A program made the position numbers and the translations under genes. Shown here in pieces: positions 38,718 to 39,455 of a stretch of DNA of 64,000 nt. The stretch is from Escherichia coli (GTDB lineage Bacteria; Pseudomonadota; Gammaproteobacteria; Enterobacterales; Enterobacteriaceae), in assembly GCF_003334765.1 (NCBI RefSeq), contig NZ_QOWT01000002.1; one strand, written 5' to 3'. Positions within the stretch are counted from its first letter, which is position 1; each line of letters opens with the position of its first letter. Below the pieces are notes generated by a model, which did not search any database, was not told where the DNA came from, and saw nothing but the letters and a program-made list of their open reading frames with translations.

Positions 38718-38832
38718 GTTATTAACCCTCTGTTATATGCCTTTATTTGCTTTTTTATGCCACTGCATACTGATTAACCCTCATTAATCAGTCGGCAAGT
38801 CCATTCTCCCCAAAAATGCAGAATAATCCAAC

Positions 38833-38896
38833 ACGAATATGATACTAAAACTTTTAAGATGTTTCATTTATCGCTATAGATGTTTCAAAATGTAAA
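38833..38896 (-). promoter_or_regulatory. OmpR-binding boxes C1-C3 of the ompC promoter
   Basis: Minus strand reads TTTACATTTTGAAACATCTA / GATAAATGAAACATCTTAAA / AGTTTTAGTATCATATTCGT, three tandem 20-bp OmpR-type sites, about 115-180 bp upstream of the ompC ATG. Confidence 0.75.
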
Positions 38897-39051
38897 TGCA
38901 AGGGAACTTTTTAAGATTATTGCGGAATGGCGAAATAAGCACCTAACATCAAGCAATAATAATTCAAGGTTAAAATCAATAACTTATTCTTAAGTATTTG
39001 ACAGCACTGAATGTCAAAACAAAACCTTCACTCGCAACTAGAATAACTCCC

Positions 39052-39144
39052 GCTATCATCATTAACTTTATTTATTACCGTCATTCATTTCTGAATGTCT
39101 GTTTACCCCTATTTCAACCGGATGCCTCGCATTCGGTTTTTTTT
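39052..39144 (+). ncRNA. micF: MicF antisense sRNA (represses ompF translation)
   Basis: 93-nt sequence GCTATCATCATTAACTTTATTTATTACCGTCATTCATTTCTGAATGTCTG...CGGATGCCTCGCATTCGGTTTTTTTT ending in an intrinsic terminator; divergent from ompC. Confidence 0.9.
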
Positions 39145-39455
39145 ACCCTTCTTTACACACTTTTCATTATTCTGTGCTACCACAGAAAAACTATAACGCT
39201 TGTTAACTATTTCACAAATAATTAACATCCGCATAATTTCCAGCAATCTTTGTTTATTTGCAATTATTTTTGTTGGGCTTTTTGTAGGTTATTTGTACAG
39301 CAAAATGGCGCTTGTACATCTATTTCCCCCAATGCAGGATGATAAATATCACGGGAGAATAGAGAATCATCAATCAGGTAAGAGTCTGGAATTTCACACT
39401 GTACCCTTTATACTGCCCTATCACTTCGCGAAGTTTTAACAGGTCATAAACACGA

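Follow-up and report, generated by a model that had tools for sequence, protein, structure and literature searches.

The 738-bp tract between ompC and rcsD is the known ompC-micF-rcsD intergenic region, and we read it as two adjacent, functionally separate regulatory modules (probability roughly 0.93). Module 1 (38718-39051) is the divergent ompC/micF promoter region. Module 2 (39145-39455) would comprise independent rcsDB promoters. We favor two modules because the micF gene and its terminator lie between them, rcsD has a transcription start site (TSS) of its own, rcsD is missing from published OmpR tables, the micF-rcsD spacer is loose, and some strains have IS1 within it. Positions are those of the window, the whole 64-kb stretch of Escherichia coli DNA that was analyzed. 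Our own computations cover the sequence identity, the Rfam match, the geometry, conservation and the pairing of MicF with ompF; the literature supplies the TSSs, the occupancy by OmpR, the binding of Rob/MarA/SoxS and the rcsD promoters of Salmonella.

The identity of the locus was established against E. coli K-12 MG1655. All 961 of 961 bases at 38600-39560 are identical (100%), which bears out the alignment to the annotated micF and ompC region that an earlier note on this DNA had proposed as a check. Subtracting 2,274,032 from an MG1655 coordinate gives the window position, and the counterpart is NC_000913.3 2311646-2316160, holding ompC (b2215), micF (b4439) and rcsD (b2216). The annotation places ompC at 37614-38717 (-), micF at 39052-39144 (+) and rcsD at 39456-42128 (+). 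The genes, the TSSs, the OmpR boxes, the robbox and the terminator sit at matching positions, and no difference was seen. The ompC reading frame, with its start codon at 38715-38717 (-), encodes the 367-aa porin OmpC (NCBIfam NF007841, 751.7 bits; cut-off 484). The rcsD frame opens with an ATG at 39456 and encodes the 890-aa phosphotransferase RcsD (NF007907, 1564 bits; cut-off 634). The ompC-micF-rcsD region was found in 5377 of 5426 complete E. coli genomes. No evidence against the identification emerged. This is the textbook K-12 region, already well known, and its confirmation is mainly a positive control, with coordinates, strand and function correctly deduced from raw sequence. EnvZ-OmpR control of ompC/ompF osmoregulation is the paradigm of graded two-component control.

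The overall layout is as the earlier note had drawn it: an AT-rich tract of about 740 bp, with micF divergent from ompC and ending about 310 bp before rcsD. The tract measures 738 bp and has 34.4% GC, against 52.0% for the whole window. This is approximately the lowest GC for its size, since only 0.05% of such stretches in the 64 kb are as low. By annotation, the ompC ATG lies 334 bp upstream of micF on the opposite strand, and 311 bp separate the end of micF from the rcsD ATG. Three open reading frames in the spacers, at 38998-39225 (+, 75 aa, TTG start), 39109-39246 (-, 45 aa) and 39200-39439 (+, 79 aa, TTG start), were not accepted as genes, since they overlap micF or fall in sequence that is poorly conserved and rich in indels.

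The ompC side of module 1 begins with a 79-nt 5' UTR (38718-38796, -), defined by the mapped TSS at NC_000913.2 2310850, window position 38796 (Kim et al. 2012 supplement). It contains published MicC and RybB pairing sites. Its mean conservation is 0.84, where conservation is the mean identity to the E. coli base across 81 species. The core promoter (38803-38831, -) matches the published 50-nt string upstream of the TSS, with a -10 hexamer GAGAAT at 38803-38808 (conservation 0.85) and a -35 hexamer TTGGAT at 38826-38831 (0.99). A consensus promoter scan returned two promoter-like sites where 3.1 were expected, neither of them real and one within the OmpR boxes C2-C3. The scan is uninformative here because the promoters of ompC, micF and rcsD depend on activators and depart from the consensus.

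Three tandem OmpR boxes do lie between the ompC and micF promoters, as the earlier note had claimed. Its interval for them, 38833-38896, was 4 bp too long, with the surplus bases beside the -35 hexamer, because the TSS at 38796 puts the boxes at 38837-38896. They are contiguous, 20 bp each, and span -41 to -100, all on the minus strand. Box C3, TAAAAGTTTTAGTATCATAT, occupies 38837-38856 (-41 to -60; conservation 0.89) and is placed by the mapped TSS and the 20-bp tandem box model. Box C2, TAGCGATAAATGAAACATCT, follows at 38857-38876 (-61 to -80; 0.79) and carries one copy of AGATGTTTCA. This 10-nt repeat occurs exactly in two copies 21 bp apart, the sole exact copies in the 64 kb. Box C1, TTTACATTTTGAAACATCTA, lies at 38877-38896 (-81 to -100; 0.87). 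An exact match to the published C1 oligonucleotide lies at 38870-38905 (-), whereas chance alone would give 0. We take the sequences of C2 and C3 to be those of the classical literature; a literature search with the two sequences returned an unrelated primer match only. Conservation of 0.79-0.89 across C1-C3, against 0.37-0.45 in neighboring variable segments (81 species; identity to the E. coli base), indicates that the boxes are under purifying selection.

Occupancy of these boxes is documented. In the published model, phosphorylated OmpR occupies the tandem 20-bp boxes C1-C2-C3 hierarchically. In published ChIP-exo data, an OmpR peak with a signal-to-noise of 64.9 lies at 38852-38906, covers C1 and C2, and is assigned to ompC and micF only. 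Deletion of ompR lowers ompC expression by a log2 fold change of -4.84, a drop of about 28-fold. Phosphorylated OmpR fills C1, then C2, then C3, and at high osmolarity activates the ompC promoter, which is weak. The ompF promoter (F1-F2-F3, F4) is built alike, with tandem 20-bp OmpR sites of two 10-bp half-sites each, immediately 5' of the -35, and hierarchical occupancy by phosphorylated OmpR. It differs in an extra distal repressing site, F4, which ompC lacks. Since ompC needs C2-C3 occupied at high levels of phosphorylated OmpR, the two porin genes are reciprocally osmoregulated.

The same cluster, 156-215 bp upstream of micF, is the positive osmolarity input for that gene. C1-C3 are reportedly used bidirectionally, also by micF, and the single shared ChIP-exo peak supports such use. 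Just 5' of C1 lies a conserved block, GGGAACTTTTT (38903-38913), most columns of which are at least 95% identical among the 81 species; the literature search found no assignment for this block. Further along, AATCAATAACTTA (38973-38985, +; conservation 0.76) matches WATCAANNNNTTR and, read directly from the sequence, resembles the IHF consensus. A published OmpR data set names IHF among the regulators of both ompC and micF. The distance from ompC to micF is 321-344 bp in 112 of 112 species loci with enough flank, in a survey of 81-120 Enterobacteriaceae species.

The micF promoter has a -10 hexamer TAGAAT at 39039-39044 (+; conservation 0.85), ending 7 nt upstream of the TSS mapped at 39052, which has 495 reads (Kim et al. 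2012 supplement). A Rob/MarA/SoxS box (marbox or robbox) at 39001-39020 (+) lies over the -35 position in a class II arrangement and would provide a further input to micF. Structural and binding data agree on it. The DNA of the Rob-micF crystal 1D5Y, TGACAGCACTGAATGTCAAA, corresponds to 38999-39018; according to the cryo-EM paper the robbox is 20 bp long, its A site being GCAC and its B site CAAA; and in Salmonella, ChIP-seq puts MarA, RamA and SoxS at the orthologous position. With a position weight matrix constructed without the micF site, the box scores 14.8 bits and ranks third among 127,972 15-mers in the window.

The position of the MicF sRNA given by the earlier note, 39052-39144, is borne out by the MG1655 annotation and by Rfam, the search the note had named. 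RF00033 matches 39051-39144 (+) over model positions 1-94 of 94 with 114.4 bits against a gathering score of 79 (E=2.8e-17). A permissive Rfam scan of 38400-39800 found MicF as the one significant family, and a tmRNA fragment match of 9.8 bits was dismissed as noise. The gene is 93 nt long (conservation 0.92). The locus also matters historically: no chromosomally encoded regulatory antisense RNA had been described before MicF. The literature likewise describes a 93-nt RNA.

Pairing with ompF was computed with the 5' 33 nt of MicF and the translation-initiation region in place of full-length MicF. Nucleotides 1-33 pair with MG1655 ompF -17 to +10 at -27.1 kcal/mol, and none of 1000 shuffles did as well (-9.7+/-2.7 kcal/mol). 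Full-length MicF against the ompF leader gave a long duplex no better than shuffles. By pairing its 5' end with the ompF translation-initiation region, MicF represses OmpF. A single OmpR signal therefore raises OmpC while it lowers OmpF. The ompN-micC pair of E. coli is arranged similarly, a porin gene divergent from an sRNA that represses another porin, and both pairs are influenced by H-NS. It is a separate locus with differences: micC and ompN are not induced by OmpR, MarA or SoxS, OmpR represses MicC, and no tandem array of the C1-C3 type is described there.

The micF gene ends at 39144, at a strong intrinsic terminator (39116-39144, +) recognized by the terminator scan, the fold and the Rfam consensus structure. 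It consists of a 10-bp stem (39116-39138) and a T8 run (39137-39144) and is kept in every species examined. The minimum-free-energy structure of the whole RNA has two hairpins (-18.5 kcal/mol, z = -5.6). This 3' module, a Rho-independent terminator with a long U tail, is as in Hfq-binding sRNAs. Some micF transcripts might nevertheless pass into rcsDB, so that induction by OmpR, MarA, SoxS or Rob would also raise Rcs components. Such read-through could draw on the shared strand of micF and rcsD, their separation of 311 bp with no second terminator-like site before the rcsD ATG, their invariant synteny, and the conserved sequence right behind the T-run. Against it speak the canonical terminator, whose 10-bp stem contains GC pairs and is followed by eight U, and TSS profiling, which gives rcsD a separate primary 5' end at 39420. 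In addition, the list of genes that respond to the ompR deletion does not include rcsD though ompC falls about 28-fold, and our literature search found no paper tying micF read-through to rcsD. We regard read-through as highly improbable.

Module 2 begins directly 3' of the terminator with a conserved block, ACCCTTCTTTACACAC (39145-39160, +; mean conservation 0.77, most columns at least 0.9). rcsDB has a proximal start at 39420 and, probably, a distal promoter near 39300. The proximal promoter (39409-39420, +) has a -10 hexamer TATACT at 39409-39414, matches the published promoter string, and starts at NC_000913.2 2311474, window position 39420 (Kim et al. 2012 supplement). This leaves a leader of 36 nt and puts the start 276 bp downstream of the micF terminator. 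The core promoter lies in a conserved island at 39384-39420 (conservation 0.68).

Salmonella Typhimurium rcsDB offers a comparison for the remaining inputs. It shares the micF-rcsD order, the rcsD TSS 36 nt before the ATG and the conserved spacer islands. Its rcsD TSSs were mapped at -36 and -157 from the ATG. Its published inputs are activation by SirA/UvrY, which requires an element at -270 to -220, and autorepression by RcsB. These inputs map within the micF-rcsD spacer, and OmpR is not among them. The -157 TSS, the SirA element and the RcsB autorepression were mapped in Salmonella only, with E. coli counterparts of the first two expected at about 39299 and about 39175-39225. A distal promoter is probably present near 39300 in E. 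coli: the probable region (39288-39320, +; conservation 0.54; compare Salmonella rcsDB-157) contains the position of the Salmonella TSS, and a sigma-S holoenzyme SELEX peak at NC_000913.2 2311354, about 39300, falls between micF and rcsD. Upstream of it, a partly conserved island at 39174-39207 (+; 0.65 against 0.3-0.5 around it) is a candidate UvrY/SirA-responsive element, and its place appears to match that of the Salmonella element when measured from the end of micF. A palindrome at 39170-39187, TTCTGTG-CTAC-CACAGAA, was rejected as a regulator site or hairpin, as its left arm alone is conserved.

Could the whole tract still act as one? In that case the AT-rich 738 bp would be an integrated region that co-regulates ompC, micF and rcsD through a spreading H-NS/IHF nucleoprotein structure or through looping from the OmpR cluster, and porin, sRNA and Rcs levels would be set together. 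[quoted passage not shown] Between its two parts, nevertheless, stand micF itself and a terminator that is strong and conserved, and rcsD has its own TSS 276 bp past that terminator and its own conserved core promoter. No rcsD entry exists in the published OmpR ChIP-exo binding and ompR-deletion RNA-seq tables, which represent one condition, and the published rcsD inputs, SirA and RcsB, map inside the micF-rcsD spacer. That spacer is also far looser than the ompC-micF interval. From micF +1 to the rcsD ATG the aligned set covers 394-539 bp, a spread of more than 140 bp, with indels of up to 213 alignment columns, against 321-344 bp between ompC and micF. Conservation is about 0.8-0.99 in micF, the marbox, the OmpR boxes and the -35 hexamer, against mostly 0.3-0.5 in the micF-rcsD spacer. 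Some natural E. coli strains even tolerate IS1 in it, at 39354-39362. A single integrated region is therefore very unlikely.

The separation into two modules also bears on the earlier note's view that all three genes share one control region. The part concerning ompC and micF stands, as they do share a divergent region. The part concerning rcsD is not supported, given its own TSS, the terminator and its absence from the OmpR tables. Adjacency and AT-richness do not place rcsD in the OmpR-controlled unit; rcsD has its own promoters. That rcsD is independent of module 1 in E. coli we infer from negative findings and indirect ones: its absence from one ChIP-exo/RNA-seq set (one condition), the presence of the terminator, and promoter mapping carried out mostly in Salmonella. 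rcsD lies downstream of micF in 105 of 105 loci with enough flank, and this universal synteny and the conserved block at 39145-39160 leave room for some unrecognized coupling of rcsD.

Module 1 holds one further element, a degenerate distal marbox-like sequence, GCACCTAACATCAAG (38939-38953, +), at micF -113. It scores 2.0 bits in E. coli and was picked out by its cross-species pattern. Sites orthologous to it reach 10 bits or more in 77 of 116 species, and its conservation follows GCACnnWnnRYYAAA. OmpR was set aside as its binder, because the resemblance to AACATC is specific to E. coli and the conserved positions fit the marbox pattern. Most Enterobacteriaceae carry one or two additional marbox-like sites 5' of the known micF Rob/MarA/SoxS box, degenerate in E. 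coli; the Salmonella sequence of this region is GCACAAACAGATAAA. The literature found describes the proximal micF marbox only, and the distal sites are a purely computational phylogenetic footprint. Tentatively, and with the odds somewhat against it, the ancestral Enterobacteriaceae ompC-micF spacer may have held as many as three marboxes, all in one orientation (at micF -48, about -114 and about -136). Through the distal two, MarA/SoxS/Rob/RamA could bind additionally and tune micF or ompC in genera such as Salmonella, Enterobacter, Klebsiella, Cedecea and Atlantibacter; in Escherichia these two would have decayed. This distal array is the sole potentially new item at the locus. If true, it would sharpen the picture of how porins are controlled by antibiotic- and oxidative-stress regulators in clinically relevant genera.

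We aligned the window to Escherichia coli K-12 MG1655, the check proposed in an earlier note on this DNA. Positions 38600–39560 are identical to NC_000913.3 2312632–2313592 at 961/961 positions, and MG1655 coordinates are converted to window coordinates by subtracting 2,274,032. The curated MG1655 record places ompC (b2215) at 37614–38717 (−), the ncRNA gene micF (b4439) at 39052–39144 (+) and rcsD (b2216) at 39456–42128 (+), which coincides with the coordinates and identifications of the earlier note. Past rcsD comes rcsB, and rcsC is convergent to rcsD/rcsB; OmpC, RcsD, RcsB, RcsC and ApbE all exceed the curated cut-offs of their NCBIfam models. 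Out of 5426 complete E. coli genomes searched, the region is chromosomal in each of the 5377 that carry it. Judged from this sequence identity, the tract is the already known ompC–micF–rcsD locus itself, not a mere look-alike. The curated record (NC_000913.3) has micF; the PGAP-annotated record of a K-12 derivative (NZ_CP030240.1) carries no micF feature here. A missing RefSeq sRNA annotation is therefore not evidence of an absent gene. Elsewhere in the window, naRNA4 (RF02564; REP/BIME-type repeats) occurs as five tandem copies at 30501–31035 (+) and as two copies at 42805–42995 (−), in the convergent rcsB–rcsC intergenic region. A tRNA-Pro (GGG) gene at 13491–13567 (+) and an L25 ribosomal-protein leader (RF03131) at 9750–9775 (+; 46.9 bits) are ordinary for this part of the K-12 chromosome.

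The note's claim of an AT-rich tract of about 740 bp was borne out. The tract (38718–39455) spans 738 bp at 34.4% GC, against 52.0% for the window, and is essentially the lowest-GC stretch for its length within the 64 kb. MicF had been placed at 39052–39144, ending about 310 bp ahead of rcsD; the gap from the end of micF to the rcsD ATG is 311 bp. The Rfam search on which that placement was to be judged calls MicF (RF00033) at full length at 39051–39144 with 114.4 bits (gathering score 79), so the placement holds, and a permissive scan found no other RNA family in 38400–39800. The predicted fold of the RNA has both of the hairpins expected for it (−18.5 kcal/mol, z = −5.6), and a terminator scan gave a canonical intrinsic terminator, with a 10-bp stem at 39116–39138 followed by eight T. 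The first 33 nt of MicF form a duplex of −27.1 kcal/mol with positions −17 to +10 of the MG1655 ompF mRNA; shuffled sequences gave −9.7 ± 2.7 kcal/mol, and 0 of 1000 were as good. MicF thus shows every defining feature accessible to sequence analysis: covariance score, ompF seed complementarity, a U-tailed terminator and divergence from ompC.

The micF transcription start site (TSS) was mapped at 39052 by published TSS profiling, and the −10 hexamer ahead of it is TAGAAT (39039–39044). The DNA of the Rob co-crystal (PDB 1D5Y, TGACAGCACTGAATGTCAAA) corresponds to 38999–39018. A cryo-EM study describes a 20-bp robbox (the Rob/MarA/SoxS site, or marbox) whose B site overlaps the micF −35 element, which makes the promoter class II. 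With a marbox matrix built from 86 Salmonella MarA/SoxS/Rob/RamA ChIP-seq sites, the micF site excluded, 39004–39018 scores 14.8 bits and ranks third among the 127,972 15-mers of the window. The Salmonella orthologue of this robbox is bound in vivo by MarA, RamA and SoxS, and each defining class II robbox feature accessible to sequence analysis is present. A published OmpR data set gives IHF as a regulator of ompC and micF; AATCAATAACTTA at 38973–38985 agrees with the IHF consensus and is a candidate site.

Kim et al. (2012) profiled TSSs genome-wide and map the ompC start to NC_000913.2 2310850, window position 38796, giving a 79-nt leader. Read off the promoter string of the same study, the −10 hexamer is GAGAAT (38803–38808) and the −35 hexamer TTGGAT (38826–38831). 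Counted from this start, the OmpR boxes are C3 at 38837–38856 (−41 to −60), C2 at 38857–38876 (−61 to −80) and C1 at 38877–38896 (−81 to −100). The earlier note's array at 38833–38896 therefore stands as three contiguous boxes but not in its extent, which takes in four surplus bases beside the −35 hexamer. The arrangement is exactly that of the published model, three tandem 20-bp OmpR consensus-like elements of two 10-bp half-sites each, in which low OmpR-P fills C1 and high-osmolarity activation requires C2–C3. The C1-site duplex from the literature matches exactly at 38870–38905 (−), with zero matches expected by chance, and AGATGTTTCA has just two exact copies in the window, 21 bp apart and both inside OmpR boxes. 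Sequence analysis found all those defining features of the C1–C3 array that it can address. The cluster reportedly acts bidirectionally, serving micF too. Consistent with this, a single OmpR ChIP-exo peak, at 38852–38906 after conversion, is assigned to both ompC and micF, and it has the top signal-to-noise among the OmpR table entries examined. Published RNA-seq shows ompC down by log2 4.84 upon ompR deletion. In the same data apbE (b2214; apbE/ftp, 36447–37502), downstream of ompC, falls by log2 1.33, and the joint drop suggests that some ompC read-through or co-regulation reaches apbE. Adjoining C1 upstream, the block GGGAACTTTTT (38903–38913) is nearly invariant in 81 species; with TTTAC of C1 it may, as one possibility, form a degenerate CpxR-like GTAAA-N5-GGGAA arrangement.

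A search with a degenerate pattern for the micF 5′ end, run on a single genome from each species, yielded 120 Enterobacteriaceae loci. Of the conserved elements in their phylogenetic footprint to which the literature examined assigns no role, the clearest is an additional marbox-like site, present in most Enterobacteriaceae upstream of the micF robbox and oriented like it; many genera have one more. At −113 to −116 from the micF start, 77 of 116 species have a best score of 10 bits or more on the ChIP-derived matrix (median 11.3), as do 49 of 116 at about −136, counts from a computational observation on phylogenetically non-independent species; control 13-bp bins elsewhere in the ompC–micF spacer reach this score in just 0–5 species. 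The conserved columns are the informative marbox positions, GCACnnWnnRYYAA(A/G), with the n positions varying, and the pattern appears in an alignment made without anchoring on the motif. In S. enterica subsp. arizonae the distal site GCACAAACAGATAAA scores 16.7 bits, on a par with its own proximal site. The E. coli K-12 sites are degenerate, at 2.0 bits (38939–38953) and −6.9 bits (the −136 position), and are probably vestigial. We found no mention of distal micF marbox-like sites in the literature examined.

The earlier note further held that rcsD shares one control region with ompC and micF. Gene order is fixed: ompC lies divergently 321–344 bp upstream of micF in 112/112 loci with enough flank, and rcsD downstream in 105/105. 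Between micF +1 and the rcsD ATG, however, the aligned loci show anything from 394 to 539 bp, and insert blocks span as many as 213 alignment columns. Conservation per position in 81 species, measured as the average identity with E. coli, is 0.99 for the ompC −35 hexamer, 0.79–0.89 for C1–C3, 0.85 for the robbox and 0.92 for micF; most of the micF–rcsD spacer lies at 0.31–0.54. Within the spacer, islands stand at 39145–39160 (0.77; most columns at least 0.9) and 39174–39207 (0.65), and the rcsD core promoter (39384–39420) reaches 0.68. Directly after the micF T-run, outside the sRNA, the first island carries the block ACC(C/T)TTCTTTAC (39145–39157), followed by (A/G).

The micF gene, with the strong terminator at its end, separates the OmpR/marbox module from rcsD, and rcsD has a start of its own. 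Its primary 5′ end, NC_000913.2 2311474, is window position 39420, 36 nt ahead of the ATG, with the −10 hexamer TATACT at 39409–39414. In Salmonella, rcsD transcription begins at this −36 position and also at −157; these starts, a SirA-responsive element (−270 to −220) and RcsB autorepression all fall within the micF–rcsD spacer. For the E. coli sigma-S holoenzyme, a SELEX peak lies in the micF–rcsD spacer and converts to about 39300, the expected place of the Salmonella −157 start. No rcsD entry occurs in the supplementary text for OmpR ChIP-exo and RNA-seq. Coupling of rcsD to the upstream module by micF read-through or a long-range nucleoprotein structure is very improbable; our literature search found no report tying micF read-through or OmpR to rcsD.

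IS1 elements lie within the micF–rcsD spacer in the natural E. coli strains EC-07, 5444 and 4848. The EC-07 insertion is a net 776 bp at 39354–39362, flanked by the target sequence GGAGAATAG; it separates the upstream part of the spacer from the rcsD proximal promoter, about 60 bp upstream of the proximal TSS. The insertion might alter Rcs expression.

Tests for the features that would define a single control region shared with rcsD did not find them. The intervening terminator, the rcsD start, the missing OmpR-table entry, the variable spacer and the IS1 insertions, five lines of evidence, place rcsD outside the ompC–micF control region in any functional sense demonstrated so far. Together with the lack of a literature link, they make two adjacent modules, rather than one shared 740-bp control region, the best description of this locus.
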